A DNA stretch of 64,000 bases from Sphingomonas sp. (GTDB taxonomy: Bacteria; Pseudomonadota; Alphaproteobacteria; Sphingomonadales; Sphingomonadaceae), in contig NZ_DASYHL010000005.1 of assembly GCF_035998645.1 (NCBI RefSeq), forward strand, positions 807,487-871,486, given 5' to 3'. The notes beneath the pieces were generated by a model, which did not search any database, was not told the origin of the DNA, and saw only the letters and a program-made list of their open reading frames with translations. The position numbers and the translations under genes are program-made. Shown here in pieces: positions 1,592 through 21,576 of the stretch. How positions within the stretch are numbered: position 1 is the first letter of the stretch; every line of letters starts with the position of its first letter.

Positions 1592-2203
1592 TCAAACGAT
1601 CCGGGCGGCAGTCACCATTCGCACCAAATCCGACAAGGTTTTGGCCTGCATCTTCATCATCAAGTTGGCACGATAGACCTCGACCGTCCGTGCACTGATA
1701 CCCAAATCGAACGCAATCGCCTTGTTCGCGTCTCCCCGAACTAGCCCCTCCATCACCTCAAGCTCGCGCCCGCTCAGCGAGGCAATCCGGTCGCGCACCG
1801 CCAGACGCTCCATCCGGATCACTTCATCGCCAGCGTGGGTGGCGAGCGCCTTGCGGATCGCGGCGAGCATCATCTCATCATCGAACGGCTTCTCGATGAA
1901 ATCTGCAACTCCGGCATGCATCGCCTGAATCGCAAGCGGCACGTCGGCATGGCCAGTAATGACGATGACCGGCGTCCCGGCCCCCGCCCGCTTCATTTCC
2001 TCGACCAGCTCGATCCCGCTGCGCCCCGGCATGCGCACATCAGTGACGATACATGCTCCCGCCAGGGGCGGCGACGCAGTAAGAAAGGCATCTGCGGACA
2101 CGAACGCGCGAACGCGGATCCCGGCACAATCGAGGAGGAACTCGAGCGAGTGGCGCGCCGCTTCGTCATCGTCGATCACATAGACAATCGGGTCACGCGA
2201 CAT
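1592..2203 (-). CDS. fixJ: FixJ-family response regulator (REC + LuxR HTH)
   Basis: [47 protein letters not shown]; directly downstream of fixL. Confidence 0.9.
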
Positions 2204-3782: not shown

Positions 3783-3834
3783 CGGATCGGCCTAGCTCGG
3801 CACCACATCTTCAGCCGATTTCACGGAGACCCAA

Positions 3835-4524: not shown

Positions 4525-4575
4525 AGTTCCCGGGCGTAACGGATGCCGCGCCCCACCCTTTCACTGGAGTAGATC

Positions 4576-5025
4576 ATGCGTACTGTCTCGTCGGAAACCA
4601 TGGCCATCGTCAAAGCAACTGCGCCCGCACTGGAGAAGCATGGCGTCGCAATCACCACAGCGATGTACCGCCGCCTTTTTGAGAACTCCGAGATCGAAGC
4701 GATGTTCGATCGCGCCGCGCAACAGAGCGGTGAGCAGCCGCGGCGGCTGGCAGGCGCGATCCTCGCCTACGCCAAGAATATCGACCGATTGCAGAATCTG
4801 GGGGCGGCTGTCGACCGGATGGTGCTTCGCCACGTCCAGACCGGCGTGAAGCCTGAACATTACCCCTATGTTGCAGCAGCGCTGCTTCCCGCCATCCGCG
4901 AGATCCTTGGAGAAGATGTCGCTACCGACGCAGTGCTGGCCGCATGGGGCGAAGCCTATTGGATGCTCGCCGAGATCCTGATTGCCGCAGAGGCAAACGC
5001 CTATGAAGACGCCGCCGCCGGGTGA
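4576..5025 (+). CDS. Single-domain bacterial globin (Vitreoscilla/flavohemoglobin N-domain type)
   Basis: ITTAMYRRLFE, QPRRLAGAILAYA, RHVQTGVKPEHYPYV, AWGEAY. Confidence 0.9.
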   Translation: MRTVSSETMAIVKATAPALEKHGVAITTAMYRRLFENSEIEAMFDRAAQQSGEQPRRLAGAILAYAKNIDRLQNLGAAVDRMVLRHVQTGVKPEHYPYVAAALLPAIREILGEDVATDAVLAAWGEAYWMLAEILIAAEANAYEDAAAG

Positions 5026-5148
5026 TAAAATTGGCGGCTTTCGGGAAGGCGAGGTGGGATGGGAATAGCGGGAATTGGGGCGCTTTGCCGACTGGCTGGC
5101 TTTTGTAATAGCGGACAGGCCGCTCATGGGCCGGGAGTAGACCGTTGG

Positions 5149-5161
5149 CTTTGAGGCGCAA
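5149..5161. repeat. Copy of a short intergenic repeat core (CTTTGAGGCGCAA)
   Basis: Exact reverse complement at 15708-15720; TTGAGGCGCA again at 41358-41367. Confidence 0.5.
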
Positions 5162-5536
5162 CAGCCCCCAAATGGTCACCTAGGCTTGCTTCGCCAACGG
5201 CCACCCCCAAGTCCCCCCATCCTGTCACTCTCTGGAGATAGCCCACGGAATCGTATCCTGCGAAAAATTCGGCACCTCGGTTCTCAACGGAGGCAACAAG
5301 AGCCATCCCCCTGTTCGCACCGGTCAATACGCATATGCTCGAAATGGCCGTGGTGTAGGATGCGCTAGCTGCGACTAGTGCGAAAGGCTGCTAAGTTGAC
5401 GGGTATCACCCCCTGAGTTCGCCGGTGACTGCGCTGTATTCCAGCCCGAAAACCGCCTCTTCTTGACGATCGAAGGTTTGCATGACCAACTGATCGGGCA
5501 AGGCGACTGTAAGTTCGTCAGCGCAGGGAGTTCGCC

Positions 5537-6409
5537 ATGTTGCCATCCCGTCAAACTGCCATCTCGTTCCATCGCATCCGCGCTGTTCAGCAGGCGCGCG
5601 ATCTGCTCATGATCGCAGTTACGGGATTGGCGGTGAGTGGTTGCATGTCGACGGAGCCAGCAGCCGCACCGGGACGGACTTGGGCATATTCGCCTTATGC
5701 TTCAGGTAGCCAGTCCAATCCAATAGCGATTGAAGTTCCGGACTCCGCGCTGTCAGGCGCAGCCCCTTCTGGTCCCAAAACACAGCCCCAGCAAAGTGGT
5801 CCCATATTGGCCGAGCGGCAATTCGAGACCAACCTCGAGTTATTCCAGATCCTTCCGCTCGTCATCGAGCATTTGCAAATGGAAGCCTTGCCGGGAGGCG
5901 CGGCCAAGCTTGCCGCCTTCATCCAGGCAGCCAGGAACACTGCCGAGGTGTCCAACCCATCGTTTCCAAGCCAAGTGGTGGTATCGACACGCGCATGTGG
6001 TCGCGCAGATGGCGCATTACGCCAATGGGCGGAGACCCGGTTCTGCAACGCGGGGTTGACCCGCTACGATGAACTTCGCATCGAGACCTTTGCGAGCTGG
6101 CGCCCTACAACAAATGTTCCCTGTTCCGATTGTGTAACACAATACACGAAGCGGCTGAACGCGTTGACGATAGACACGTTGACGGCACCCCTTGGTTCAA
6201 TCGGTTATACGGGCCGCGGGGTCATCGAGGGCGGACGTGGAGGCCCGTTCCCCTCACCCCTTGTCCATAGCGGCTTTGTCCGCGGACCTGCAGCGCCTCT
6301 GCTGGCTGCAAGCCATCGTCCGCTGGCAGATATGGCGGGCAAGCCGCTCGAGCTTCCGCCGGCCGTCTTCCAGCTGCAAATCTACTTTCCCGCAAGCGCA
6401 GAAAATTGA
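5537..6409 (+). CDS. Hypothetical protein, possible lipoprotein
   Basis: 290-codon ORF; lipobox-like LAVSGC after a hydrophobic stretch; no family recognised. Confidence 0.35.
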   Translation: MLPSRQTAISFHRIRAVQQARDLLMIAVTGLAVSGCMSTEPAAAPGRTWAYSPYASGSQSNPIAIEVPDSALSGAAPSGPKTQPQQSGPILAERQFETNLELFQILPLVIEHLQMEALPGGAAKLAAFIQAARNTAEVSNPSFPSQVVVSTRACGRADGALRQWAETRFCNAGLTRYDELRIETFASWRPTTNVPCSDCVTQYTKRLNALTIDTLTAPLGSIGYTGRGVIEGGRGGPFPSPLVHSGFVRGPAAPLLAASHRPLADMAGKPLELPPAVFQLQIYFPASAEN

Positions 6410-6643
6410 TGATTGGGTTCCAGCCAAACTCCGACCCTCACCTGCAGGAACGGCGATGATGGCCCCAAAGCGCCGCGGCGGGACGAACGGTCGCGTCTGG
6501 GTGCGTGTGCCGGGGTGTTGAGCCACCGAATCTCGGGCGCAGGCTGTCGGCGGAGCCATCAGGTGATCTGGCAGCAGCTTACGGCGCCCCTGCCGGCTTG
6601 GGTTCGGCTCGATACTGCGTGCAGATAACTGACGGGGAAAAAG

Positions 6644-6946
6644 TTGATGTTCAGCTCGAGTGTGACGGCAGCGGTCTTCATGTCAACCGCGCCGATTTCT
6701 TCAGCCACGCCGTTCCAGCAACAGGCGAGTTGCTGGATCAACCATGTCGTCGCCACCAAGAATGGTGTTCGGGTATATTTTCGTCGGAAAGGAGGTCCGC
6801 TTTTCGTGAATCTGGCCGATCGTGTTTTCATACCAGCCGCTGCGCCGGTTGATCCGGCGCGACCGGAGGATGCGGCGGTGGAGGTGATTTTAGGAGATCG
6901 GTCAACCGAAGCGGACAAATTGGCCTTGAGGCTGAAGAATCTTTGA
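6644..6946 (+). CDS. Hypothetical protein
   Basis: 100-codon ORF with ordinary globular composition; no motif recognised. Confidence 0.25.
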   Translation: MMFSSSVTAAVFMSTAPISSATPFQQQASCWINHVVATKNGVRVYFRRKGGPLFVNLADRVFIPAAAPVDPARPEDAAVEVILGDRSTEADKLALRLKNL

Positions 6947-7238
6947 GCCTGCCGGGGCTGCCACCATCGTCGAAACGCTTCATCCCAGCCAGTCACTGAG
7001 CGCCACGATTCCACCTATCAGCGGCGGAACCCCAAACACTTTTACGAATGGCTGCCTTGGGGAGCTTCAACCGACTGCACAAAGACCGACAGTGGTGCGC
7101 CTAGCGGCCATCGCTGCTGGATTTTCCCGGGAACAAATGTCGCTCGTGCGGCCAACCAGAGTCCAAACCCCGATCCCTCGCCCGCGCTTAGTTCAGGAAG
7201 CTGATTGCGGTCCGCACGAAGTCCGATAGACAAGGGCT

Positions 7239-8150
7239 ATGTTCCGGACCCCGATCCTCGCGCTCACCCTGTTCGCCTTGGCCAGCGGCTGCGCCGACGA
7301 GCGGCAGGCGGATGTATCGCGCCCTGCGTCGGCACCGCTCAAGATCACCAGCTGGAACCTCGAGCATCTCGCCGAGCGCAACGGCCAAGGCTGCCGTCCC
7401 CGCACCGATGCCGACTATGCCGAGCTGCGCCGTCATGCCGATGCGCTTGGCGCCGATGTGATCGCGCTCCAGGAGGTCGAGAGCAAGGCTGCAGCCGAAC
7501 GGGTCTTCGATCCGGCCCGCTATGATGTGGTGATGTCAGCGCGCCCACAAAGCCGCCGCGGTGGCAGCTGCTATGGCAAACCGGGACAGAGCATCGGCCA
7601 CCAGGCCGTCGGGTTTGCGATCCGCAAAGGGGTTTCCTGGACCCGCAACGACGATCTGTCGGCGTTGGCGCTCGGCAACCCGGACCTGCGCTGGGGTGTC
7701 GATGTCACGATCGCGGGACGCCGCCCGATGCGTCTCCTTGCCGTTCACCTCAAGTCGGGCTGCAATTCAGGGCGTACGCCGAGCGACGCCGACTGTCCGG
7801 TTCTGTTCGATCAGCTGCCCGTGCTCGAACGCTGGATCGACGGGCGCGCCGCCGCCGGCGAGAGCTTCGCGGTTCTTGGTGACTGGAACCGTCGGATCGC
7901 CGCAAGCAGCGACGCTTTCTATGCCGAAATCGATGACAATGCCCCCGCCGGCGCTGATCTGACGATCGCTTCGGGCAACCAGGCCGCCAGCTGCAAGGCG
8001 CGCTATCGCGAGTTCATCGATCATATCGTGTTGGGCGCGAAAGCCACCGCCCGCACGGTCCCGGGCTCGTTTGAAGAATATCGCTATGACCTGCCCGAGG
8101 ATCGGCATCCCTCGGACCACTGCCCGATCTCGATCAAGGTCGCGCCATAA
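7239..8150 (+). CDS. Endonuclease/exonuclease/phosphatase (EEP) family lipoprotein
   Basis: Lipobox LASGC; SWNLE, ALQEV, LGDWN, IDHI and SDHCP catalytic motifs. Confidence 0.9.
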   Translation: MFRTPILALTLFALASGCADERQADVSRPASAPLKITSWNLEHLAERNGQGCRPRTDADYAELRRHADALGADVIALQEVESKAAAERVFDPARYDVVMSARPQSRRGGSCYGKPGQSIGHQAVGFAIRKGVSWTRNDDLSALALGNPDLRWGVDVTIAGRRPMRLLAVHLKSGCNSGRTPSDADCPVLFDQLPVLERWIDGRAAAGESFAVLGDWNRRIAASSDAFYAEIDDNAPAGADLTIASGNQAASCKARYREFIDHIVLGAKATARTVPGSFEEYRYDLPEDRHPSDHCPISIKVAP

Positions 8151-8395
8151 CGCAGCGCTCCGATCCACCGGCCTGCGTCGGCCGCGTGGGAACGCTCAGG
8201 ACAGCAGCCAGCGGATGCCGCTCCAGATCCCTGCAACCGCCGACGCGCCGACAAGCAGCGCCAGCAGGACGGCCTCGATCATTCCGCCCGTGGAGAACTT
8301 GTCGCGCTTGCGGGCCATGAGCGCAAAACAACCACAGCGAACGGAGGGCGGCCAGCGGAATCGACTCCGGGCCGGTTCGCTGGCACCCTCCGCAT

Positions 8396-9079
8396 ATGTG
8401 CAACCGTTTCCATCAGTCGGAGAAGGTGGTCCACCATCTGGCCGAGTGTGGCGTGATCGTCGACGTCGACATTACCGACCGCCCCCGCCAGATCTTTCCG
8501 ACCGGCAAAAAGACGCCCCGCTTTGGCCTGGTCGTGAAGCGCCAGAGTGCCGGCAATCAGCCGCTCGTTGCCGCCATGCAGGAATGGGGCTTCCCGACCA
8601 CGATCAAGGGCGCCAAGGGTCAGCCGCTTCAGAAGTACGTGACCAACGCGCGCAACCTCGACAGCAGCTTCTGGCGCGCGAGCCTCACCAATCCCGAGCA
8701 GCGCTGCCTGGTCCCGTTCACGCATTTTGCCGAGCCGCATCCCGACGGGGGCAAGGGCGACGATGGCATGCCCAAACAAGCGTGGTTCAGCCTGCCCGAT
8801 CAACCCGTCGCGATGTTTGCGGGACTGTGGCGCCAGACCGAGCGCGGGCCTGCCTTTGCCTTCGCGACGTGCGAGCCGAACGCGATCGTCGGCCCGATCC
8901 ACCCCAAGGCGATGCCCGCGATCCTCACGCCCGCCGAATGGCTGGACTGGCTGAGCGCCGACGCGGGCACCGCAAAGGCACTGGTGCGCCCGTATGACGG
9001 ACCGATGGCGATGCAGGTCGAAACCCCGTTCCTCCCCGGGGAGAGCGCCCAGGACGCGCGCCCCGCTCTGCTGCTATGA
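8396..9079 (+). CDS. SOS response-associated peptidase (SRAP/HMCES/YedK, abasic-site protection)
   Basis: N-terminal MCNRF (catalytic Cys2), TNAR, CLVPFTHFAE, HPKAMPAIL. Confidence 0.9.
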   Translation: MCNRFHQSEKVVHHLAECGVIVDVDITDRPRQIFPTGKKTPRFGLVVKRQSAGNQPLVAAMQEWGFPTTIKGAKGQPLQKYVTNARNLDSSFWRASLTNPEQRCLVPFTHFAEPHPDGGKGDDGMPKQAWFSLPDQPVAMFAGLWRQTERGPAFAFATCEPNAIVGPIHPKAMPAILTPAEWLDWLSADAGTAKALVRPYDGPMAMQVETPFLPGESAQDARPALLL

Positions 9080-9228
9080 CGCCCGACCAGGAGCGATGGG
9101 CCGAGGCGCTCGCGGTCGAGCGATTGCATGGCGCGCTGGCGCTCGCCGGCGATTCGGCAGGCGTCGCGCGGTTCAGGCAGATCGCCGCCAAACTTGAATC
9201 GATCCAGCGCGCGTCTCGCGACGGGTGA
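9076..9228 (+). CDS. Small DUF6961-like protein (50 aa, possibly internally deleted)
   Basis: ATGA overlap with the SRAP stop; MTPDQERWAEALAVERLHGALALAGDSAGVARFRQIAAKL resembles sphingomonad DUF6961 proteins as I recall them. Confidence 0.5.
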   Translation: MTPDQERWAEALAVERLHGALALAGDSAGVARFRQIAAKLESIQRASRDG

Positions 9229-9463
9229 TCCTTCCACCAAAGTCACCGCCGCTTTGGCCGGTTCGACATCGGTCGGGGAGCCCGCGTCCGCTCGGACGCA
9301 GGCGGGACACACGTCGCGCCCTTTTGAGGGCCATCGCCAGCGTGGCTGGCGCATCTTGGGGAGCCGCAGCGCAAGCCCCCCCCGCGCTATCAAGCGCGCA
9401 GCGGAATTCGAGCTCAACCGACCCGCGTCGAGCGACCGAGGCGCGCCGCCACGCCTCCGTCCT

Positions 9464-11431
9464 TCAGATTGAGGAAATCTCTGGACCGCGTCGCCTGCTT
9501 CCAAGCTGCCAGTCGATACCGCCTGATTGCACGGTGCCCGCTACCCGATTGCCGAACTGCCGTTCGAGCACCGGACGCCACGGCACCAGCGTAAACTCGC
9601 GGCTGCGCTCAACGAGCGCGTAGCGACCACTCATCAACGCGATCCGACGCGTCAATCGCCCGTCGATTTTCTCGCCCTGCCTGGACTCGACAAAGACCTT
9701 GCGCAACGAGCCCTCGAGTTCGCCGGCCACGCGCAGCAACTCGCGCCGCTGCAATAGGGCAAGCGCGCCGCGGTTGAACGCGATCCCGCCGGCTACAGGC
9801 TGCGCCAGCCCCTGCTCGATCAACCATTGCCGACGCGCGGCAAGCGCGGCGCGCACCTCGCGACCGAACCCCGCGTCGCGCGCCACGATCGGCTCCTCGC
9901 CCGCAAGCGCCCGATCAAGCCAGGTTGCGGCATTCGCGCCCGGCAATTGATCGAGCGGGGCGCTGGACAGCGTCTCGATCAACACCGGCTGATCGCGCGC
10001 CAGCCGCCCCTCATAGGCACGCACTCGCTCGAGGTGCCGATCGCTGACAATCCAGCTCCCATCGTCCTGCCGCTCGACGACGCCCGCGCGCCGCAATGCC
10101 TCGAGCCTGCGCACATGGGCTTGCGCGAAGGTGCTGCTCGCCGCGGGATCGTCGCGAAGGTGCAACTCGACCGAATAGCGGCCGCCATTGGCAGCGGCGA
10201 TCCGCGCGATCGTCCGGTCGGCCTCGCGGACCTCGGCAACTTGGGCGGTCACGCGCACGATCGCCCCCTCGGGCAACGGGTCCGACGCACCGGCACTGCC
10301 GATATCGAGATAATGAACCCGTCCATCGACCCCATCCACGATCAGATACTGGCGGTCGCGATGTTCGTCTGAGAGCCCGCGCTGGACGACCCGCCCGACG
10401 ACCGGTGCCGCAAGCGTGCCCGCGATCACCCGATCGGCAGGCGCACGCTCGAGCTTCCGCGCGGTCAGTTCGCGCTGCATCAGGCGGATGATGTCGCCGC
10501 GCTCGCCCATGCGCCGCAGCGTATCCTCAAGGCCGTCGGCGAGCCGCCAGCGGCCCTGGCCCAGATCATCGGCAAGACCCATCGCGGCGAGCTTGCGCAA
10601 ACGACCGGTTGCGACCGCCTGCTGGAAGGGGTCGTTGTGCGCGGGACTGGTGATCCGATCGGGGTCCATCCGCGCCAGCAATCGGCGATCGATCGCCGTC
10701 AGCCGCTCCTGCTCGACATCCTGCCGGAGCCGGTTCTCGATCTCGCGGTCGGTTCTTGGTCCCAAATCGAGTGACGCAAGCTCGGCGGCGCGCTCACGGA
10801 AGCCATGCGCGATATATTCCCGAGCGATGACGAGGTTCTCGCCGCGATCATCGACCCCGCGCAGCACGATATGCGTGTGCGGGCGCTCGGTGTTGAAGTG
10901 ATCGACCGCGACCCAGTCGAGCTTCGTTCCAAGGTCATGCTCAGCCTGGGCCATCAGGCGCCGGATGAACGGCTTGAGGTCGGGATACTCAGCGCCATCC
11001 TCGGCCGACACAATGAAGCGGAACAGGTGACGATCGCCGCCGCAGCGCTCGAGAAACGCCTTGCCGTCGGCGGCATCGCGATCGCGCCCGTACAGCGCAC
11101 CCGGCGAACCCTCGCGGGTGACCCCGTCGCGCTGGATATAGCGCAGGTGTGCGCGGGTCGCGGCGAGCGCCGTTCCGCGCATCCGCACGAGCCGGGTTTT
11201 GACGATGGCCCGGCGCGCGCGCAGCCCGACGAAGCGATCGCGGCTCGACAGCAGCCGCCCGATGCTCGCGCCGCGTCCGATCCGGCTGCCATCGAAGCGG
11301 CCCCGCTTTACGCCGCCAGAGCCTCCGGCGAGACGGGCCGCAGCGAGCACGCGTCCGCCATATTTGACAACGCGCTTGCCGTCCTGGCCGCCGGGCTTGC
11401 CGAGCTTGGGGGTGAACTCGTCGTCGCTCAC
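9464..11431 (-). CDS. rlxS: Relaxase, RlxS/VirD2-like with DUF3363 C-terminus
   Basis: HLRYIQRDG (catalytic Tyr), HUH motif AVDHFNTERPHTHIVLRG, C-terminal RYALVERSREFTLVPW. Confidence 0.9.
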   Translation of the reverse strand: MSDDEFTPKLGKPGGQDGKRVVKYGGRVLAAARLAGGSGGVKRGRFDGSRIGRGASIGRLLSSRDRFVGLRARRAIVKTRLVRMRGTALAATRAHLRYIQRDGVTREGSPGALYGRDRDAADGKAFLERCGGDRHLFRFIVSAEDGAEYPDLKPFIRRLMAQAEHDLGTKLDWVAVDHFNTERPHTHIVLRGVDDRGENLVIAREYIAHGFRERAAELASLDLGPRTDREIENRLRQDVEQERLTAIDRRLLARMDPDRITSPAHNDPFQQAVATGRLRKLAAMGLADDLGQGRWRLADGLEDTLRRMGERGDIIRLMQRELTARKLERAPADRVIAGTLAAPVVGRVVQRGLSDEHRDRQYLIVDGVDGRVHYLDIGSAGASDPLPEGAIVRVTAQVAEVREADRTIARIAAANGGRYSVELHLRDDPAASSTFAQAHVRRLEALRRAGVVERQDDGSWIVSDRHLERVRAYEGRLARDQPVLIETLSSAPLDQLPGANAATWLDRALAGEEPIVARDAGFGREVRAALAARRQWLIEQGLAQPVAGGIAFNRGALALLQRRELLRVAGELEGSLRKVFVESRQGEKIDGRLTRRIALMSGRYALVERSREFTLVPWRPVLERQFGNRVAGTVQSGGIDWQLGSRRRGPEISSI

Positions 11432-11499
11432 CGCGCCGCGTCCTCAGTCTCGCGATTTTGCCCGGCAACCCACGCATTTGCGCCATTCTTCGCGATCAT

Positions 11500-11670
11500 G
11501 TCTCGCGCGACCGCTTCGCGGTCTCGCAACAAAAGGATGTGCAGACAATCACTTGAGCAGGGTCGAGAGACACTGCCTTTATCTTGTTTTCCCTTCTCCT
11601 TCCCCCCACCCCCTCCCCGGCTCAAAAAGAACGCCGGGACACGCCACCCCAAGGGCGGCGCATCCCGGCG
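11500..11670. other. Candidate oriT region upstream of the relaxase
   Basis: Non-coding; imperfect IR GCGACCGC-TTC-GCGGTCTCGC next to CACATCCT (minus strand, resembles the MOBP nic core YATCCTG); a second hairpin CGCCGGGA...TCCCGGCG at about 11632-11670. Confidence 0.3.
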
Positions 11671-11686
11671 CTGTGCAGGCAGAACC

Positions 11687-12043
11687 TCAGGCATCCGCGA
11701 ACGCCGCCAGCGCTTGCGATCGCCGTTGGAACGACCGTTTGCACAGCATGCCATGTGGGCTGCCCTCGCCATCCACGAGCATCGTGGCCACGAACCAGCG
11801 CCCCTCGAGACAGCCCAGAATGCGCACCCGATCGAGCTCGATGTCGTCGGCATCATCGTCCAAAAACGGCCCGATCCAGCGCTCCTCGATGCGCGCATCC
11901 CACGCAAAATCCAGCTCTTCTGCGCCCAGAAAGCGCTGCGCCAGCGCCGCGCCGGCATCGTCCCCGAACTCGATCTGCAAGCCGGCGATCAATGCCGAAA
12001 CCACACGCTCCGACGGGACTGAAATGGGTTGAAAGCAAGACAT
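11687..12043 (-). CDS. Hypothetical protein in the transfer operon
   Basis: ATG at 12043; acidic 118-aa globular sequence between the lytic transglycosylase and rlxS. Confidence 0.6.
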   Translation of the reverse strand: MSCFQPISVPSERVVSALIAGLQIEFGDDAGAALAQRFLGAEELDFAWDARIEERWIGPFLDDDADDIELDRVRILGCLEGRWFVATMLVDGEGSPHGMLCKRSFQRRSQALAAFADA

Positions 12044-12264
12044 GATCCGTTCCTTCGCTGTCGCCCTCCGACGTGAGGACCACAGTCGAACGACGGGCGG
12101 CGGAGCGGCTGTCAGGGCCGCCGGAGCGCTAGCGCAGGCGCCGCGAAGCGGACGCGGGGGGAGCCGATTTGCGCAGCAAATTGGGGGGCACCCGCGGGCC
12201 TTGATAGCCGCTTTGCCGCCCGTCATGCTTGGACGACCGAGACGCCACCCTCCCCCGCTCACGA

Positions 12265-12867
12265 TCATTGCGGCACCCTGCGGAGGAAGAAGATCGGATC
12301 GCCGCCATCCCCGGGCGCAGCCGCACGTCCCGCCACATCGGATGCCCGACCCACCACAAACACCTCCGGCGGATCGCCCGCTAGGGTCGCATCCCCCGGC
12401 CCCTGCGCGCCCACAGCCGCGAGATAGGCGACGGTCTCGCCGGGCAGCGATCGTTTGCCCGCAAGCCACGCGCGATAGCGCGCCGGCCCGGCATTATAGG
12501 CCGCAAAACAGCCGGGATATCCGAACTGATCGTACATCGCGCGCAGGTAGAAAGTGCCGGCGAGGATATTGTCGCGCGGATCGTCAGGGTCGGCGCCGAG
12601 CCCGAGCGTCGCGCGCACTTCGCCCCAGGTTCCCGGCATCAGCTGCATCAGCCCGATCGCGCCCTTGACGCTGCGGATCGGACGGCCGCCAAGACGGGTC
12701 CGCCCCCCGCTCTCGGCGCGCATCACCCGCTCGATCCACTCGGCGGGAACGCCGAACCGGGCCGAGGCCTCGGCGATATAGGGCTGCCAGCGCGCGACAT
12801 CGCGCGCCTGCGCAGGCGCTACGGCAACCAGCGCGATCGCAGCCACGGCAAGCCTCAGCGCTGCCAC
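12265..12867 (-). CDS. Lytic transglycosylase (SLT domain, Msi107-like)
   Basis: GTG start overlapping traF; signal peptide; MRAESGG, GAIGLMQLMP, AAYNAGP. Confidence 0.9.
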   Translation of the reverse strand: MAALRLAVAAIALVAVAPAQARDVARWQPYIAEASARFGVPAEWIERVMRAESGGRTRLGGRPIRSVKGAIGLMQLMPGTWGEVRATLGLGADPDDPRDNILAGTFYLRAMYDQFGYPGCFAAYNAGPARYRAWLAGKRSLPGETVAYLAAVGAQGPGDATLAGDPPEVFVVGRASDVAGRAAAPGDGGDPIFFLRRVPQ

Positions 12868-13433
12868 AGCAGCACCGCGCGGCCGACGATATCGGCGCCT
12901 TCCGTAACCCCGAAATAGCGCCCGTCGAACGAGCCGGGCGCGTCCATCAGCAGCAGCTGTTGCCGCCCGGACAGGCGCACGCACCCGCTCCACCACGGCA
13001 TTGCACGCCCCTGCCCGTCGCGGCGCAACCGCCGCGCGACCACCCGGCCACCGACCAGGATCACTGCCCCCGAAGCGCAGACCTCGCTGCCCGCGACGGC
13101 TGCAACGCGCTTCACCAGCGGCACATTCTGCGGGAGATAGCCGCGCACGGCAGCAAGCCGCCGCCACGGCAGCGGCACACGTGCGATCACCATGTCGCCG
13201 ACGGCGGCAGGCGTTCCGGGCGCAACGCGATAGAGCCCGATCGGCGCGCTCGCGCTGGCGTTCCACAGCAGCCGCGGCGCGGGCGGCGCGACGATCGTGC
13301 CTGCCAGCGCGAGCACGCCAGCGCCGATCCCGAGCGCGGCAACCCGCAGCTGCCGCGTCCGCCGCGCCGCGCGAAGCGCCTCGCCCCAGGCGAGCAGCGG
13401 CGCGTCGCCGGTGGAGGTCCGGCGCGCGCTCAT
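12855..13433 (-). CDS. traF: S26 family conjugal-transfer peptidase TraF
   Basis: WNASASAPIGLY, PLVKRVAA, SFDGRYFG. Confidence 0.9.
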   Translation of the reverse strand: MSARRTSTGDAPLLAWGEALRAARRTRQLRVAALGIGAGVLALAGTIVAPPAPRLLWNASASAPIGLYRVAPGTPAAVGDMVIARVPLPWRRLAAVRGYLPQNVPLVKRVAAVAGSEVCASGAVILVGGRVVARRLRRDGQGRAMPWWSGCVRLSGRQQLLLMDAPGSFDGRYFGVTEGADIVGRAVLLWQR

Positions 13434-13660
13434 GGCGCGATCTGCCGCGCGCTATGCTCGCGGCTCCAGTCGTCGAGATCGTCGATATGATATTGAACAA
13501 AGCGGCTATGGCGCCGGAACACCGGCCCCTTCCCGGCCCGGCGCAGGCGCTTCAACCCGCGCACCGAGATCTTGAGATAGGCCGCTGCCTGATCGGTATT
13601 GAGGAAGGGCGAGCCGCGCTTGGCGCGGCCGGCACGATCGATATCGTCGGGATAATCCAT
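13430..13660 (-). CDS. rdfS: Small winged-HTH excisionase / recombination directionality factor (RdfS-like)
   Basis: FLNTDQAAAYLKISVRGLKRLR...GPVF...VQYHIDDLDDW; first gene of the traF-LT-rlxS operon. Confidence 0.7.
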   Translation of the reverse strand: MDYPDDIDRAGRAKRGSPFLNTDQAAAYLKISVRGLKRLRRAGKGPVFRRHSRFVQYHIDDLDDWSREHSARQIAP

Positions 13661-13740
13661 GAGGGGCTTGCTCCGCACCGAAGCGGCCCCATGCCGCTTC
13701 GCGCGGCACTTCATCTGTCGCAGCAGACCCCCGCGCGGCA

Positions 13741-13772
13741 GGGTCGAAAACGCCTAGCAGCGAATTCGACCC
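13741..13772. promoter_or_regulatory. FseA-type inverted repeat GGGTCGAA-N16-TTCGACCC upstream of the rdfS-like gene
   Basis: Perfect 8-bp IR with a 16-nt spacer about 80 bp upstream of the ATG at 13660; same geometry as the GGCGAA-N16-TTCGCC box I recall for ICEMlSym PrdfS. Confidence 0.65.
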
Positions 13773-13790
13773 CCTACCGCTCCGGGCACG

Positions 13791-14696
13791 TCAGATGTCG
13801 GGCTCCGCAAGCCGCCGCTGCGCAATCGCCTTCACCTCGGCCTGCAGAAGTTCGACCCGCTCGACGATCCAGTCGAGCTCCTCGCGGGTGATCCGATAGT
13901 GCGGCGAGTAGCGCGCATTGACATAGGCCTGCTGCAGCAATTCAAAGCAGCGGCGCGCGAATTTGGTGTCGCGCGGCCACACCGGAATGAGGTCGCGCGC
14001 GACATTCTCGGCCTGATCGCGCAGGAAATTGAGCTTGTGCGACTTGGGACTGTAGAGCGTCAGCACAAGTAACAGCGTATGGTAGGCATGCTCGACGGCT
14101 TGGTGCAGAAGAAAGGCCGCGCGGTTGTTATAGCCCTTGTCCACTGCGCCCTGTGCGAGGTCTAAAAACTCGGCAGCGCTCGAATACCACTGAGCGAAAT
14201 TCGCCTGCGCCTCGGCCCGCGCAGCTTCCGGATCAAGCGGCTTCGGCGCCTCGAACGGGTGCCCGTCGAGCTGGTAGAGGGCGACCCCATCGCGCACGAT
14301 ATCGACAAAGAACGGACGCCCCCGCGCGAGCAGGTCGTTTACATCCTTGAGGCTGTGCACGATGAAATTGACCGGCGCCGAGAGCCGCTTGCTGATCGAA
14401 TACTCCCGCAGCAGATGGTCGGCAGCCTTGGCCCAATAGTCGAGCGTATCGGTGAGGCGCTCATCACTGACGACCACGAGAATGTCGTAATCCGAGTAAT
14501 AGCCACCGATCGGATCGGCGACCCAATCGCCACGCGCATAGGAGCCGTAGAGGATCACCTTGAGGATGCGCCCCTGCTTCTTCCATTGCTGGGTCGCAAG
14601 GCGCGTCGCGTCCTCGAATTCAGCGAACAGGATCTCGACAACGCGCTCGAGGTCGCGGCGCTTGGCGGATGGAAGATGATCGAGATCGGTTTTCAT
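13791..14696 (-). CDS. Nucleotidyltransferase (MNT) + HEPN fusion protein
   Basis: LYGSYARGD...SDYDIL (GS/DxD) followed by HEPN AAFLLHQAVEHAY and YVNARYSPHY. Confidence 0.85.
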   Translation of the reverse strand: MKTDLDHLPSAKRRDLERVVEILFAEFEDATRLATQQWKKQGRILKVILYGSYARGDWVADPIGGYYSDYDILVVVSDERLTDTLDYWAKAADHLLREYSISKRLSAPVNFIVHSLKDVNDLLARGRPFFVDIVRDGVALYQLDGHPFEAPKPLDPEAARAEAQANFAQWYSSAAEFLDLAQGAVDKGYNNRAAFLLHQAVEHAYHTLLLVLTLYSPKSHKLNFLRDQAENVARDLIPVWPRDTKFARRCFELLQQAYVNARYSPHYRITREELDWIVERVELLQAEVKAIAQRRLAEPDI

Positions 14697-14760
14697 GATG
14701 GTTCGAATCCTAGCGGGCTTCTGGCCAAGAACAACGGCAACATGAAGCAGAAAGGGAAGA

Positions 14761-14786
14761 GACCCCGCGCCGCTTGGCGCGGGGTC
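14761..14786 (-). terminator. Hairpin terminator after DUF736
   Basis: GACCCCGCGCC-GCTT-GGCGCGGGGTC, an 11-bp perfect stem followed by a pyrimidine-rich tract on the minus strand. Confidence 0.6.
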
Positions 14787-14793
14787 CAGGCGG

Positions 14794-15114
14794 TCAGTCG
14801 GCCGGATTCCAGATGATGGCGAAGCTGTCGTCATCGGTGTGACCAGCGGCGCGACCGAGATTGGCGTAGAGCCGGCGGGGTCCGAACTCGGGTGCAGCGA
14901 GGCTCAGCGACACATAGTCCTTGCCCGAGGTTTCGCTGCGGCGCAGCCACCCCGCGCCGACCTCGACGCCGCCCGAAGTAACCCGATAATCGGGCTGGTT
15001 GTCGCTGGTCTTGCGGTCGTTGGGGGCGATCAGGATATCCGCCCGGATTGAGAGGGTCTTGAGCTCGCCCTTGAAGGCGTTGCCGTCGCGGGTGACGTAA
15101 CCGATAGCAGCCAT
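14794..15114 (-). CDS. DUF736 domain protein
   Basis: MAAIGYV...QPDYRV...EVGAGW...GKDYVSLSLAAPEFG...LYANLG...IIWNP. Confidence 0.9.
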   Translation of the reverse strand: MAAIGYVTRDGNAFKGELKTLSIRADILIAPNDRKTSDNQPDYRVTSGGVEVGAGWLRRSETSGKDYVSLSLAAPEFGPRRLYANLGRAAGHTDDDSFAIIWNPAD

Positions 15115-15982
15115 GATACTTCTCCTTGTGGTTCGCCCCGCGGAATGCCGGGCGATGGGCAGACCAAGGGAACGGTGACAGCGGAACGGCGAACCCGAAG
15201 GGCCGCAGCGTCAGCGGAGGACCGGAGCGAAGCGACTTATTTGCAGCGAAGCGGCCGCGAGGAGCCCGCCTGCGGGCGGGGAAATAAGCCGCCACGCGAT
15301 GGTTTTGTCCGTACCGCGACCGTTCCAGGTCAAGTCCCAAGAGCCGCCTTTCCGTCGGGCGAAATCACGGAGGTTCTCGGTGCAAGCTGTCGGTGTTTAG
15401 CCTACACGCAAACGATCGGGGCGCACTCAACCGAGAACTTGCAAATCCGGCGAATGACGGGCTACGGCCACAGCTGCTACGGAACCCCATTCAAAGTTCG
15501 GGATGCGAATTGACGCTGGGCGGCAAACCGCGGGGCTAATAGCGAGCTCGCGACCGGCTTCGGCGCTTCTCCGAAACGGGCGCATCCGAGCGCACGAAGC
15601 GTGCCCGCCGTGGCGGTTAGCCGCGCGCGACCGCCATGCGCGGCGCCTTTGCAACGGTGCTGAGCTCCCTAACGTGAAGTGTCGTAACTAAGCAACGGTC
15701 GTCAGCTTTGCGCCTCAAAGTCGGTCGTCGAGCCTGCCGGATAAAAGCCGGAAATCTGCCGTTCGCTCACCGCGCGGGCCGCGCATCCGGGAACGGCTGA
15801 GATTGGGAGAAGGCGCCGCTCCTATGCCGCAGATTAAGCGTCAGCTGCTGTCGGGAGGCGACGTGCAGCGCTTGTTCGCGCGGCGTGACGTTAAGATGAA
15901 GCTGGGTCGGCTGGAGACCGGCCGCTTTCAGCAAACGATCCAATGAGCTGGACGTTCGGTGGCGCTCGGTCGCACCGCGCTT

Positions 15983-18900
15983 CTACTGTCCTCGCTTCTT
16001 TCCATTTTTATGGCCCTTTTTCGAGCTTGGTTTCGACATCTTCGCCGCCTTTTTGGCGGCTTTCGCGGCCTTGGTCGCCTTGGTATCGATGCCGCGCTTG
16101 GTCAGATCTATCCCGATGACGCGTATGTCCTCGACGCCGGGGTAGTCGTTAGAGATGAGTGTCCAGTGGCGCTGGAGCTCGTCGACCAGCATCTCGAAGG
16201 TGTCGGCCCGTCGGCCGTTTGGCAGCTCCCAGTACGACTTCGTGCCGAGGTAAACCAAAAGGAAGATGCCGCGGCTTGACCGGACGTCGCGCAGGTAGTC
16301 GCCGCACAGCTGGACCTCGAGTCGTTCGAAGAGGTGCGGTCCGGTCCATTTGTCTGCCAGCTTCAGCTCGGTCGGCACGGGTGCATCGAAGCCGACGCCG
16401 AAGAAGCGGAGGTCCGGCCGCTTGGCGTCCGCTAGTTCCTCTTCCTGCGGGACAACGTAGCGTCCGGCGGCATGGTCGCGGCACCATCCGCCGATGAACT
16501 TCCGGAACTCCGTCTCTTGGTCGATCGCCTGCAGGATCGATGCGATCGAGGAATCGCCGTTCTCGAGGTCGTGTTTCAGCGCGTCGAGCTTGTCGGCGGC
16601 GTGATACCAAAGTTCGCGGTGGTTCGCAGGCGTCGCGACGAGGGACTTTCCGAACTCGCGCACCTGTGCCGGGGTCCAGGCGTCGACGTCCGCATCGGCC
16701 GCGGCCTTCGCCTTCGCGTGGAAGCCCATCCAGGGTCTGCTTCCCTCATCGGGGTGCGCGCGCGCCATCTCGAGCAGCGCGAGGAACGCCGGTTTGCCGG
16801 GCGTCTCGCGGATGAAGGCGATGAGCGCGTTGCGCGCGTCCTGCGCGTCGTCACGCAGGCCCGGCGAGTAGACGCCCTTGCCGGCACGCTGGACGTCATC
16901 CTCCTGCCGTATGTAGCGAGCCATTAGGAGGTAGAGCGACTTCATGTGCTCGACCGTGCGGAAGGCCTGGCGCGCTCGACCCTCCTGCGAACGGCCGCCG
17001 AGCAGGGCGACGACGAAGGCGAGCGCCAGTTTCGTCTGCTCTGCGGGATCGTTCATCCCGGCAAAGCGGGCCGCGAGCGCGGGGATCGCCGCATCCGGGT
17101 CGACGCCGACCCATGTGGCGAACCAGATCGGGGAGAAGGTCAGGTTGCGGGTGGCATTTGCCTTCCGGGACGCGATCGCGGCGATCGTCTTGTCATCCAC
17201 CGACGAGCGGTTGATGATCGCCAGCAGGTAGCCGAGGTTCCTGGTGTTGAGCCGCTTGGCGCGTATCGCTGGTAGTAGGTCCGGCGCGATATGGTCCCAT
17301 ATCCAGTCGCCGCTCCAACTGACGTCATAGAGCGCGTAGTGGCTCTCGCCTGCGGCCGTCTCGGTGGACAGCTCCTGCATGATCTCGCGGCGGATGATGT
17401 CGACGACCTGCGAGGGGAACGTCTTGCTGAGCTGCGGGAGCCAGGTCGGGAAGCCATTCAGCTCCTGAAGCCCATAGCGGGTGGCGATCTCCGCTTGGTC
17501 CGCGTTCAGGCCGGATGGCCAGTTCTCGGTCTCCCGGGCCTCAATCGAGAGGCCGGTGAGCCCGAATATCGTCGTGAAGGGCGTCGTGTTGGCGGCCGCG
17601 CCCTCGGAACGGAGCTTCGGTATGTTCTGTCGCCAGTAGTCGACAGCACCGTCGCGGAACGCCTCCGCGAGGTCTTCGCCGAACTCGTCAATGAGGGAGC
17701 GCCAATTGCCGTCGGTCCAGCGATTATGCTGACCGTCGGTTTCCCGCATCTGGTCGTGGAGATAGGCCTGGTCTTGCGACACCAAGCCCGGTCGGCCGAA
17801 GTTCCGGACGGTGGCGATGCGACCCGCAAGAATCTTCTTCGCCCTCTGCTTCGCCTTCGCCTCTTTCGCGGCCCGCCGGTCGGATTCGCGCTTCCATGCT
17901 GCCTGCTGGCGCTTGAATTTTGCGCCGGCGCCCTTGGGAGGGTTGAGCAGCTTCGCGAGTTCTGCCTCGATCTCTGGCTCGATCGTAGCGGCCTTCTTGA
18001 GACGGTCCCGCCAAGCACGGAGCCGCCCGTTCTGGTAGTACAGCGCGACTGCGAGCGTGAGGGCCGTCAGCTTGTCGTCTTTGAGCGGCCGTCCGGTGAT
18101 CTGCTCGGCCACGTAGTCGAAGTCCGGTCCGCTGAACGCCCAATAGGAACCGAAGATTGACACGAGCCAGTAATCGGTCAGACATTCGCCGCTCTTACGC
18201 TTCCGCGAACGCTCCTCGGCGACGCAGTACCAGAACAACGCGCGGTTGAGCTCAGGCCATGCCTGGACCAGTTTCGGCAGGTCCTTGCGGATTTCCTCGA
18301 ACAGGCTGCGGCCATAGTCCTCGGCGATCGGAAGTTTCCGCAACACCGACAGTGCCGGCTTCTTGAGCGTCTCCGGATTGCGGCCCTGGATCATCTTCAC
18401 AACGATCTGACCGGCGGCCTGCCCAAGCCAGCTGTACCGCTTGGATATCTCGCAGTGGCGCTGCTCGACCACGGGCTTCCGGTTCAAAAGCTTGCTGATC
18501 CCCTCCAGCAGGGTCGCGAGCGATGAAGGCGGGAGCGATGCCACGTATCCGGACAGCGCGTTGGCGAGCGGATCGGTCTCGAACTGCTTCTTGGGTTCGG
18601 TGGCCGCAAGGGCCGAGAGGAGCCAATCCACGTCGGCCGGGGCGTTGCCGAGCCCGTCCAGAAGCTCACCCAGCCAGTCGCGCCTCAGCGGCGGCCGCTC
18701 CGCGACGAACGCCATGCGAACGTCGGCGACGTCCTCAGGCGTCCCCACCTCCACGATGGCCCGTACGGCGGCGATGCGCGCGTATTTCGACCGCGACGTA
18801 AGGGCGAATCGTTTCGCCTTGTCGGCGAGCGCGGCGATGCCGCCCTGTTGGACCATCCGCATGAGGAACCAGACGATGTCGTCGTCGTCCTTGTGGTTCT

Positions 18901-20374
18901 CGAGGAGCTCTCGGATGACGTCTGCGAGATCCGGGTTGGTGAAGCGCTGCACGGCCGAGTATTCGGTGACGCTGCGGCCATGCGCTGGCTGAGCGAGCTG
19001 CTCGCAGGATTCCCGGAGGATCTGGACCCGCGTCTCGAGCGGCAACCGCGCGGGATCGCCGCCCTCAAAAAGGACCTCGGGAGCGAGGCACATGACCCGT
19101 TCAAGGATCCGCTGATCCAGGATCGCCAGCCAAGGGAGGATCGGACGCATCGTTGGGACGACGACCTCGATGCCGTATTGCCGGCGGAAGAACAGGTTCT
19201 CGACGCGCGCGCGCGATCCTTCGTCGATCAGCAGCGAATGAATCCATTCTGCGGTGAGGAACTCGCGGACCGACCGGTGGTGGAAGCGGACAGTACCGTA
19301 GATGCCTTCGTCGAAGATCGGCCTGGTGAGAAGCGTGCGGCAGTCCGCGTCGTCCCAGTCGGTCAGGACCTGCCTGATGTCGAGGCCGCGGTCGTTCTTC
19401 TGTCCGTCTGGGACGCGTACCGCCGATTCCTTGGCCAGGGTGGACGCCGCGGCGACAAGGCGTGCACCTTCGCGAATGCGTTTCTTCGAGATCGGGTTGG
19501 CGTCTGCACGGTCCTGGTCACGCTCCTCAAGACGCTTGTCGATGCTCGCGCGCAGCAGCTCGAGGCGCGAGCCGACGCGGCCGTTCGCGAGCCAAAACTC
19601 GATTGTCTCGGCGAGATCGAGCGGCCGAGTCGTGAACGACCACGCCTCCGCGCGGTCCAGCGCCTTCCTGAACGCGGCGACGTCAATGACACCCTTCGCG
19701 TCCGCGAAGCGATCGACCTGGTTGCCGGCGAGGTCATCGAGCGCGACCATGCGGAACACCGACTTGCGCTGCTTGGAGTTTGCGCCGTCGGTGGTGGTGA
19801 CTGCTTCGTCTGATTCCTGGTCTTCGCCGGGCGCGGTCACTGGCGGGGTCCAGGACAGGTTGGTCTCGCAGAGCAGTAGATCGGTCTTAGGCCGCCATGC
19901 TTCGCCCCGGCTGGTGATGACGATGTGCGCGCGCTGCAGGGCGCCGCGCAGCTTGCGGCCGATCGTCCTTATTGCCCGCTCGAAGTCCTTGGGATCCTTC
20001 AGCCGTGCCTCGTCCACGGAGTCGAGGAGCAGCCAGCCGTCCTCGCCGGACGCGATCCAATCCTCGAATTCCTCCTGTGTCCCTTCCTCGAACGACCCGT
20101 CGAAGTCGAGCGCCAGGTGCTCGATGCGGAGGAAGAAGGCACGCTTCCCGCGGTGCCGGAGATCCCGGCATACATGCCTGATCTCCTCCGTCTTCCCGGA
20201 CCCCGCCTCGGAAAGCAGCACGACGCGTGGTTCGGCGAGCAGGTCGGGCCACTGCGCGGGCTTTTCCCGGCGCATCAGCCGGAAAAGCTCGGTGTCCTTT
20301 CCCTCCTCCTCGTGCAGGGCGAGGTCATGGAAGGTGCGGTGAAGCTGTATGAACTCGTCTAGGTCGTACGACAC
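15983..20374 (-). CDS. Large STAND/NACHT-type NTPase with C-terminal PD-(D/E)xK-like nuclease; Avs2-like anti-phage candidate
   Basis: GTG at 20374 with GAGAGGG RBS; Walker A SEAGSGKT, Walker B LLLDSVDE, ITSR, RFHHRSVREFLTAEW; helical middle; C-terminal EEELADAKRPDL...PTELK. Confidence 0.7.
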   Translation of the reverse strand: MSYDLDEFIQLHRTFHDLALHEEEGKDTELFRLMRREKPAQWPDLLAEPRVVLLSEAGSGKTEEIRHVCRDLRHRGKRAFFLRIEHLALDFDGSFEEGTQEEFEDWIASGEDGWLLLDSVDEARLKDPKDFERAIRTIGRKLRGALQRAHIVITSRGEAWRPKTDLLLCETNLSWTPPVTAPGEDQESDEAVTTTDGANSKQRKSVFRMVALDDLAGNQVDRFADAKGVIDVAAFRKALDRAEAWSFTTRPLDLAETIEFWLANGRVGSRLELLRASIDKRLEERDQDRADANPISKKRIREGARLVAAASTLAKESAVRVPDGQKNDRGLDIRQVLTDWDDADCRTLLTRPIFDEGIYGTVRFHHRSVREFLTAEWIHSLLIDEGSRARVENLFFRRQYGIEVVVPTMRPILPWLAILDQRILERVMCLAPEVLFEGGDPARLPLETRVQILRESCEQLAQPAHGRSVTEYSAVQRFTNPDLADVIRELLENHKDDDDIVWFLMRMVQQGGIAALADKAKRFALTSRSKYARIAAVRAIVEVGTPEDVADVRMAFVAERPPLRRDWLGELLDGLGNAPADVDWLLSALAATEPKKQFETDPLANALSGYVASLPPSSLATLLEGISKLLNRKPVVEQRHCEISKRYSWLGQAAGQIVVKMIQGRNPETLKKPALSVLRKLPIAEDYGRSLFEEIRKDLPKLVQAWPELNRALFWYCVAEERSRKRKSGECLTDYWLVSIFGSYWAFSGPDFDYVAEQITGRPLKDDKLTALTLAVALYYQNGRLRAWRDRLKKAATIEPEIEAELAKLLNPPKGAGAKFKRQQAAWKRESDRRAAKEAKAKQRAKKILAGRIATVRNFGRPGLVSQDQAYLHDQMRETDGQHNRWTDGNWRSLIDEFGEDLAEAFRDGAVDYWRQNIPKLRSEGAAANTTPFTTIFGLTGLSIEARETENWPSGLNADQAEIATRYGLQELNGFPTWLPQLSKTFPSQVVDIIRREIMQELSTETAAGESHYALYDVSWSGDWIWDHIAPDLLPAIRAKRLNTRNLGYLLAIINRSSVDDKTIAAIASRKANATRNLTFSPIWFATWVGVDPDAAIPALAARFAGMNDPAEQTKLALAFVVALLGGRSQEGRARQAFRTVEHMKSLYLLMARYIRQEDDVQRAGKGVYSPGLRDDAQDARNALIAFIRETPGKPAFLALLEMARAHPDEGSRPWMGFHAKAKAAADADVDAWTPAQVREFGKSLVATPANHRELWYHAADKLDALKHDLENGDSSIASILQAIDQETEFRKFIGGWCRDHAAGRYVVPQEEELADAKRPDLRFFGVGFDAPVPTELKLADKWTGPHLFERLEVQLCGDYLRDVRSSRGIFLLVYLGTKSYWELPNGRRADTFEMLVDELQRHWTLISNDYPGVEDIRVIGIDLTKRGIDTKATKAAKAAKKAAKMSKPSSKKGHKNGKKRGQ

Positions 20375-20967
20375 TGAAGCCCTCTCTGGCCGGCCACTTC
20401 TTGGTCCCTCCCCCCAAACTTGCAGGCCTCGTTGACGTGCGGCCATGCCTTTTCATGTAGCACGACTGGCGTGTCTGCTCACGCGCGCGATTCATGTCCG
20501 CTTATGGAGCTTGCAGATAACTGTCAGAGTGTGAGACCTGTGCCGCGTTGTTGCCAGGCACCTTGGGATGGGCGAATGGCGGGTTCTGGAGGAAGCTGTC
20601 GTCCAAAGCCCAATCCGCAAACGACGCATTTTGGTCGGAAGCCGTCTTGCGTGGTCAGTCGATTGCCGCGGCAGCTTTCCAGAGTTGGCCCGCTGAACCG
20701 GCCAGTCCGAAATCGGCCCACGAGCTGCCGAGCTGGTTTCGGCACGAACCGCCAGTCTACAAAGCGCCCCATGATCGGACGTTCAGCCTGTCTCCGCACG
20801 CGCTCGAAACCGGGCGTTTTTTTATCTCACTTAGCCGGTGGTGCGGAAGACGGCCCTTAGAAGTTTGCGGCCGTTCCGACGTTGTGTGCCGACCGGCGGA
20901 TTGTGGTCAGGAGCCGACATCAAAGCAGGTGTGTGCGGGGTGCTCCGGCCCACTCCCACCCACGTCT

Positions 20968-21576
20968 CTAACGCGCGGCACGCTCCCGGATTTGTAAGCG
21001 TATCTCGGCAGTCCGACGTTCGGTTTCGGTCAGCCCCGCCATCATTCCGGCCAGTGGTGCATGCGTGCCGCCCTCGAACTCCAGCCCTGCGCATACCTCC
21101 AGCGCCTTGCGATACTCGGTCCACCGTTCCTGCGCGACCCCAAAGGCCTCGGTCTCCTCGTCGCTCAGCAGCAGCCGGAGATTCACCATGGCTTCCTCCA
21201 AGTTGGCATCGGCAACCCCAAAGTCCGCGCCGGTTCGCGCCTTCATCGCCACATTCGACAGAAAGGCCGCGTATGTGTCCGGCTCATCCTCGATGGCTTC
21301 GACTACTACGGTCGCGGCTGCACTAGTCGCCAAGCTTGGCTTCCGCATAATCTTCTCGAACTGACGAACCTCGTCCAGCGTCGTGCCGCTGGCTTTCAAC
21401 TTCGCGGCTAGGTCCGCCACGCTGTTGAGGTATGCGGCCTGCTCCTGTTTTGGAGCGCCAGTCCACCAGCGATGAATTAAAAACGTGAACCCGCGTCCAA
21501 ACCAGCCGACTAGCCCCGCGACCAAGGTGATTGCGGCGACGATGAGGGTTGCTTGGGGGGCTGTGACCTGGAGCAT
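20968..21576 (-). CDS. Membrane-anchored LprI/DUF1311-like protein
   Basis: N-terminal TM; C-terminal AQERWTEYRKALEVC matches the LprI AQxxWxxYRxxxC pattern. Confidence 0.6.
   Translation of the reverse strand: MLQVTAPQATLIVAAITLVAGLVGWFGRGFTFLIHRWWTGAPKQEQAAYLNSVADLAAKLKASGTTLDEVRQFEKIMRKPSLATSAAATVVVEAIEDEPDTYAAFLSNVAMKARTGADFGVADANLEEAMVNLRLLLSDEETEAFGVAQERWTEYRKALEVCAGLEFEGGTHAPLAGMMAGLTETERRTAEIRLQIRERAAR

Follow-up and report, generated by a model that had tools for sequence, protein, structure and literature searches.

The STAND NTPases Avs1-4 (AVAST), reportedly described by Gao et al. in 2020 and 2022, are said to act as pattern receptors which bind a conserved phage protein, oligomerise upon binding and thereby bring their nuclease into the active state. 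The source study for Hypnos and Erebus is said to be that of van den Berg et al. of 2024 in Cell Host Microbe. According to a Nature paper of 2026 (PMC13581612) and its preprint (PMC12803255), Erebus, Hypnos and bNACHT64 form the family Avs10, which senses major capsid proteins by binding the penton/hexon-forming interface of the capsid protein A-domain; terminase is sensed by Avs1-3. Each Avs family was reported to be specific for one target protein, and folds are recognised across homologues without detectable sequence similarity (PMC13581612). Here, we analysed a gene for a large NTPase with a C-terminal nuclease domain, located on the minus strand (15983..20374) of a 64-kb stretch of DNA from Sphingomonas sp.; this whole stretch is called the window throughout. 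The gene very probably encodes HyoA (Hypnos), a single-protein anti-phage receptor resembling NOD-like receptors (NLRs), which belongs to Avs10 as defined in the literature and works by the mechanism proposed below. As such, it is an ordinary member of a family that is already known and curated and whose trigger has been published.

Family assignment and domain architecture

Using the NCBIfam models (release 20), the protein passed the equivalog model NF058534, "NACHT domain-containing antiphage protein HyoA", with 1675 bits at a cutoff of 1200 bits, residues 11-1427 covering positions 1-1430 of the 1430 positions of the model. The sister model NF058535 (EruA) reached 173 bits at a cutoff of 1000 bits, over residues 212-1380. 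In PADLOC-DB v2.0.0, 0 families were found for the HyoA protein at E<=1. This library presumably includes the AVAST/Avs models, with an Avs2 profile among them, and the protein is therefore not considered to be Avs2. From the parallel name pattern (HYpnOs/ERebUs to Hyo/Eru) and the shared description as NACHT antiphage proteins we infer that HyoA is Hypnos; a literature search on the names HyoA and EruA yielded nothing relevant. The placement in Avs10 would follow from this name pattern together with the grouping given in PMC13581612. A first-pass annotation of the same DNA had proposed an anti-phage family, which agrees with the HyoA match, and had labelled the protein Avs2-like and terminase-sensing. 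This label was replaced by HyoA, whose equivalog model was the one passed, and the terminase gave way to the major capsid protein, the reported target of Avs10 (PMC13581612).

The minus-strand frame 15983..20446 is open across 1487 codons. The GTG at 20374 is likely the true start and was favoured over an upstream ATG. A ribosome-binding site, AGAGAGGG, was read from the sequence at 20380-20387, 5 nucleotides ahead of the GTG, and both were kept in three homologous loci (Sphingobium, Pseudoxanthobacter, Aquamicrobium), in which the upstream ATG was not kept and the upstream sequence diverged. From the spacing of this site and the conserved GTG, a product of 1463 amino acids (aa) is deduced. 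Because the G+C content at third codon positions is 0.83 and the protein has more than 1,300 homologues, the open reading frame (ORF) represents a real gene and no chance frame. Searching Rfam gave no match anywhere in the 64-kb window, and promoter and terminator scans gave signals no better than those of shuffled sequence. The features of the locus are as follows.

15905..20532, minus strand: mobile single-gene cassette, comprising the gene with ~158 bp upstream and ~78 bp downstream, as delimited by 94.3% nucleotide identity to a contig of a Sphingobium metagenome-assembled genome (MAG) over exactly that span, flanks unrelated
15983..20374, minus strand: coding sequence of HyoA (Hypnos-type), 1463 aa plus stop; NCBIfam NF058534, 1675 bits
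20380..20387, minus strand: ribosome-binding site AGAGAGGG, from the sequence; conserved with the GTG in 3 loci
20255..20374, minus strand: short N-terminal extension (residues 1-40), a predicted beta-hairpin with strands at residues 15-21 and 29-32 of the model, no effector domain; L11, R13 and L18 invariant
19850..20254, minus strand: predicted NACHT nucleotide-binding domain (residues 41-175); predicted local distance difference test (pLDDT) 80-94; Foldseek matches NLRC4, NOD2, NAIP5, Avs4; Walker A at nucleotides 20189-20203, Walker B at nucleotides 20009-20032
19757..19849, minus strand: variable acidic insert (residues 176-206), predicted to be disordered; pLDDT ~36, alignment without consensus
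19025..19756, minus strand: remainder of the STAND module (residues 207-450), predicted to be helical with a winged helix and covered by the Foldseek alignments to NLRC4/NOD2; residues 297-370 of low confidence
16925..19024, minus strand: putative sensor region (residues 451-1150), which a basic low-complexity linker at ~811-860 divides in two; least conserved part, weak HEAT/alphaRep matches
16535..16924, minus strand: predicted helical segment ahead of the nuclease (residues 1151-1280); in the C-terminal model, helices lie within fragment positions 24-132, with pLDDT mostly >85
16091..16534, minus strand: predicted PD-(D/E)xK nuclease core (residues 1281-1428); putative catalytic residues E1287, E1311, D1321, E1336 and K1338, plus Q1355 and Y1360; from model topology and VIA-align
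15986..16090, minus strand: Lys/Ala-rich basic tail (residues 1429-1463), 33% K+R, beyond the HyoA model

The ATPase motifs are intact. Walker A (GSGKT, residues 58-62) and Walker B (LLLDSVDE, residues 115-122) were invariant in 34 sequences. With these 34 sequences the N-terminal 456 residues were folded, resulting in a pLDDT of 67.5 overall and of 80-94 in the nucleotide-binding domain. Using Foldseek, the model matched NLRC4 (E 1.2e-7), followed by NOD2, NAIP5, NLRP3 and Avs4 (8dgf), and the predicted order of nucleotide-binding domain (NBD), helical domain and winged-helix domain is like that of NLRs. Ahead of the NTPase there are ~40 residues forming a small predicted beta-hairpin, which leaves no N-terminal effector. 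An effector in front of the NTPase, as would be expected of Avs2, was not found; only the ~40-residue beta-hairpin lies there, and the nuclease is at residues 1281-1428.

For the C-terminal 314 residues, folded with 45 diverse sequences, a pLDDT of 87.5 was obtained. The model consists of a helical region followed by an alpha-beta-beta-beta-alpha-beta core. The nuclease motif is intact as well: E1287, E1311, D1321, E1336, K1338, Q1355 and Y1360 were invariant across the 45 sequences, down to 38% identity, and in the model E1287, D1321, E1336 and K1338 map to helix 1, strand 2 and strand 3. A VIA-align comparison with 48,161 chains, which does not depend on Foldseek, listed BglII first (Z 8.3, root-mean-square deviation 3.9, 132 residues aligned), followed by Can2 (8.1), OkrAI (8.0), BamHI (8.0), PaqCI, a CdiA-CT toxin, LlaBIII, BstYI, Card1, McrC, HamA and NucC; PD-(D/E)xK nucleases made up 16 of the 17 top rows. 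Foldseek hits of this model were weak and comprised nicking and restriction enzymes as well as McrC and FokI. In Pfam, nothing matched the nuclease domain at E<=10. From VIA-align and the invariant residues, the domain is predicted to adopt the PD-(D/E)xK restriction-endonuclease fold.

Searching with the C-terminal fragment gave 1642 cluster representatives at E<=1e-3. Among the best 150 of these, the nuclease domain was C-terminal in every full-length protein (~1400-1490 aa), by which the order of NACHT first and nuclease last was confirmed as a fixed feature of a large family. Most homologues continue beyond the conserved VIGIDLT(K/R)RG with a basic tail, which varies in length and sequence.

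Most of what the first-pass annotation had read from the gene itself was borne out. It had placed the ORF at 15983-20374, and with the GTG at 20374 as its start this turned out to be a real and intact minus-strand gene for 1463 aa, the start being conserved in homologous loci. It had described an NLR-like STAND NTPase, in agreement with the predicted NACHT fold like that of NLRC4/NOD2 and the invariant Walker motifs, with Walker A ~55 aa from the start and almost no N-terminal domain, and GSGKT was indeed located at residues 58-62 behind the ~40-residue hairpin. The C-terminal E...RPD...ELK motif noted there is present, its residues being invariant as E...E...D...ExK...Q...Y. The reading had been made dependent on a restriction-endonuclease fold at this end, and VIA-align and the invariant motifs both support such a fold.

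Proposed mechanism and trigger

Between the two modules lies the sensor region. Regional identities were calculated across 42 homologues; in the distant set they amounted to 51% for the NBD and 53% for the nuclease, and to 30% and 34% for the two halves of the sensor. Such a variable sensor fits a receptor with a fast-evolving recognition surface and is what a pattern receptor would be expected to have. For the ~1000 aa of helical repeats proposed at first, support came from weak HEAT/alphaRep matches only, which is an indirect check: a PDB sequence search gave no hit for the single protein, and the family profile gave weak alphaRep/HEAT matches only.

The mechanism was drawn by analogy with characterised Avs proteins, and trigger, oligomerisation, DNase activity and protection from phages are ascribed to HyoA on this basis. 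In the resting state, the NACHT NTPase would keep the protein closed. Upon infection, the large, fast-evolving helical sensor would wrap around a conserved phage protein, here the HK97-fold major capsid protein. Binding would open the NACHT module and lead to oligomerisation, which in turn would join the C-terminal PD-(D/E)xK domains into an active DNase. The DNase would then degrade DNA, and the infection would be aborted.

The genome holds a sole HK97-type capsid gene (351 aa), which adjoins a prohead-protease gene. At this locus (C3:510078-512404) a prohead-protease-like ORF is followed by the HK97-type capsid gene and a long fibre-like ORF. A complex prediction was performed for sensor residues 451-1150 with residues 58-351 of the resident capsid protein, together with 3 controls and in 3 runs. 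The interface score ipSAE was 0.32 for sensor and capsid versus 0.00 in all 3 controls, for which the verdict of the tool was "weak support". The runs agreed in at least 54% of the contacts, with a partner pLDDT of at least 68. Of 80 solved complexes, 58 attained the ipSAE mark, as did 2 of 110 mismatched pairs. At an ipSAE of <=0.60, it was reached by only 7 of the 80 solved complexes and by both passing mismatches, so that the pass is a weak one. The prediction fits the published trigger, but weakly, and says nothing on events in a cell.

Mobile cassette and integrative and conjugative element

HyoA is present in one copy in the whole genome (profile search, 1674.9 bits). Within the same taxonomic family, 5 of 201 genomes carried a gene above the NCBIfam cutoff, this genome included, while it was found in 0 of 2 other genomes of the genus; several copies were broken. 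Window positions 15905-20532 showed 94.3% nucleotide identity to the Sphingobium MAG contig; to Pseudoxanthobacter and Aquamicrobium the identity was 79-83%, over the coding region only (window ~16040-20390). A partner gene travelling with HyoA was not found, no neighbour being common to the 5 closest loci. Since the flanks are unrelated and no neighbours are shared, what is transferred is HyoA alone together with its upstream region, and the gene evidently spreads as a 4.6-kb stand-alone cassette. At other loci it adjoined recombinase and defence-like genes, the products being a large serine recombinase, a TCAD9/AAA protein, an HD phosphohydrolase, a PLD-like protein and an AAA_21 ATPase. HyoA matches were also present on plasmids, 60 in all, of which 29 are conjugative; some of these copies are cut by insertion sequence (IS) elements. 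By Megablast, no plasmid matched the locus.

Decay of the cassette appears to be common. In the 94%-identical Sphingobium copy the frame is interrupted, leaving two ORFs with 133 and 1348 aa. In Sphingomonas sp. PP-CE-3A-406 only a C-terminal remnant of the same allele was found (residues 1035-1452, 93% nucleotide identity). Records labelled Acinetobacter phage MD-2021a contain a 25%-identical "Predicted NTPase (NACHT family)", aligned over residues 35-1425; with a NACHT homologue on such phage-labelled contigs, genes of the HyoA architecture would also occur on phage or prophage DNA.

In the genome studied here, the cassette is carried by an integrative and conjugative element (ICE). A tRNA-Lys gene with an adjoining integrase is located at C2:742,484-742,559 in the whole genome, and 49 bp of the tRNA-Lys 3' end form perfect direct repeats at C2:742,513-742,561 and C2:900,217-900,265, both outside the window. 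As these repeats bound an element of ~158 kb, the whole 64-kb window is ICE DNA. TrbE and TraG genes lie at ~750-755 kb of C2. On the same strand as HyoA, the genes for a DUF3363 relaxase, a TraF-type S26 peptidase, an HTH_17 (rdfS-like) protein, an MNT-HEPN protein and DUF736 precede it. On the other side, an LprI-like gene and a TPR/PIN (TGP) two-gene module were found, and at 36-39.5 kb of the window ParB-like and ArdC genes are present. The gene next to the cassette is the following.

20968-21576, minus strand: LprI/DUF1311-like gene, 202 aa, directly upstream of the HyoA cassette and outside the transferred unit

Between the DUF736 gene and the cassette (window 15115-15904, ~790 bp), neither a convincing ORF nor an Rfam match was detected, and the sequence shows no similarity to the related loci. 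By its position, HyoA is to be regarded as ICE cargo next to the rdfS-traF-relaxase (DNA-processing) module, ~70 kb from the genes of the type IV secretion system (T4SS). It is not part of the ICE backbone, because the cassette is also found in unrelated surroundings that lack ICE genes. The first-pass annotation had put the gene inside an ICE transfer region. The ICE itself was recovered, with its extent of ~158 kb at tRNA-Lys, but within it the gene is cargo beside the DNA-processing module and the T4SS is ~70 kb away.

In another genus of the same family, the order relaxase, traF, rdfS and DUF736 is likewise followed by a HyoA-family gene (1-12284 of that locus), in the same slot as in window 9464-20374. 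This second HyoA is only 27% identical to the protein described here, yet scores over the NCBIfam cutoff. A slot shared with so divergent an allele suggests a cargo hotspot with exchanged alleles. Here, the slot also holds the MNT-HEPN gene, with the TPR/PIN (TGP) module as neighbour. More speculatively, and somewhat doubtfully, the slot past DUF736, by the rdfS-traF-relaxase genes of this class of alphaproteobacterial ICE, might be a dedicated defence-cargo hotspot exchanging HyoA alleles of differing sensors, and the receptor might even recognise the resident HK97-type capsid and so police a prophage or a gene transfer agent-like element of its own host.

Alternative readings and comparison with known systems

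Several points weigh against HyoA as a capsid-sensing Avs10 receptor with a C-terminal nuclease. The Pfam NACHT family (PF05729) scored 17.8 bits, below its gathering score of 26.7, beside a weak HEAT repeat match, and the NACHT assignment rests on the fold, the D-S-V-D-E form of Walker B and the NCBIfam family name. For the C-terminal model, Foldseek found no PDB match below E 1e-3, and the fold call at this end therefore rests on VIA-align and the motifs, the Z of ~8 being in the middling range by VIA-align's own note. The equation of HyoA with Hypnos depends on the name pattern and on both being NACHT antiphage proteins. Sensor identity to distant family members falls to 23-35%, and because of this the trigger specificity may differ among HyoA members. 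This last point opens the way to a reading which we consider unlikely, in which the HyoA family is kept and a diverged sensor recognises a target other than an HK97-fold capsid protein, for instance a different phage protein or one encoded by a competing plasmid or ICE. No other region is as poorly conserved as the sensor, at the 23-35% just given, the 27%-identical HyoA in the same ICE slot of another genus suggests allelic diversity in specificity, and the sensor-capsid prediction is weak. A non-capsid target is, however, difficult to reconcile with the score of the complex, which lay above all 3 controls (0.32 versus 0.00), and with the finding that every Avs family has one target protein and recognises folds across undetectable similarity (PMC13581612).

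Two further readings would require giving up the HyoA receptor altogether. The gene might serve as an ICE maintenance or regulatory STAND protein, or be a decaying passenger without immune function. It does adjoin the ICE DNA-processing module, and several relatives are broken by TGA stops, IS insertions or fragmentation; its own frame, however, is intact with every catalytic motif kept, and the HyoA family is curated as antiphage, which makes this very improbable. We give practically no credence to an Avs2-like (AVAST type II) receptor sensing the large terminase. The resemblance is a general one only, in that the protein is a large STAND NTPase, has a nuclease domain and lies in a mobile, defence-related setting. 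PADLOC, with its presumed Avs2 profile, returned no family at E<=1, whereas the HyoA equivalog was passed; the effector is C-terminal here and typically N-terminal in STAND proteins; and terminase is the target of Avs1-3, the capsid that of Avs10 (PMC13581612).

With the HyoA receptor as the preferred reading, the locus offers little new biology: the current NCBI models would name the gene automatically, and the trigger of the family is published. For annotation, the label is corrected from Avs2/terminase to Hypnos/Avs10/capsid, and the spread of HyoA as a 4.6-kb stand-alone cassette is documented. The location on a 158-kb tRNA-Lys ICE, in a cargo zone rich in defence genes, could serve the study of conjugative elements carrying immunity genes. 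The boundaries of the cassette, the ICE slot common to a very divergent allele and the limits of the ICE are the only new points, and only mildly so.

Compared with the described systems, the protein is closest to HyoA (NF058534), with which it shares the length, the single-gene organisation and the order of short N-terminus, NACHT, helical sensor and C-terminal nuclease in a full-length match. There is no structural difference; a 35-residue Lys/Ala-rich tail is added, which is common and variable in the family. EruA (NF058535, Erebus) represents a sister family of the same NACHT-first, nuclease-last order, far below whose 1000-bit cutoff the protein remained. Avs10, the grouping that takes in Hypnos (PMC13581612), likewise combines a STAND NTPase, a helical sensor and a nuclease. 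The sensor is strongly diverged within the family, and the capsid would be the trigger of the present protein by analogy. Avs1-4/AVAST differ in their N-terminal effector and in terminase or portal as triggers, whereas the effector is C-terminal here. Fold matches to the N-terminal module include Avs4 (8dgf). Structurally, the NACHT module comes closest to the animal NLRs NLRC4, NOD2, NAIP5 and NLRP3, at 12-13% identity, and its Walker B follows the NACHT-type pattern D-[GAS]-h-D-E. In place of the fused C-terminal nuclease found here, these animal NLRs possess a leucine-rich repeat sensor and N-terminal CARD/PYD signalling domains.

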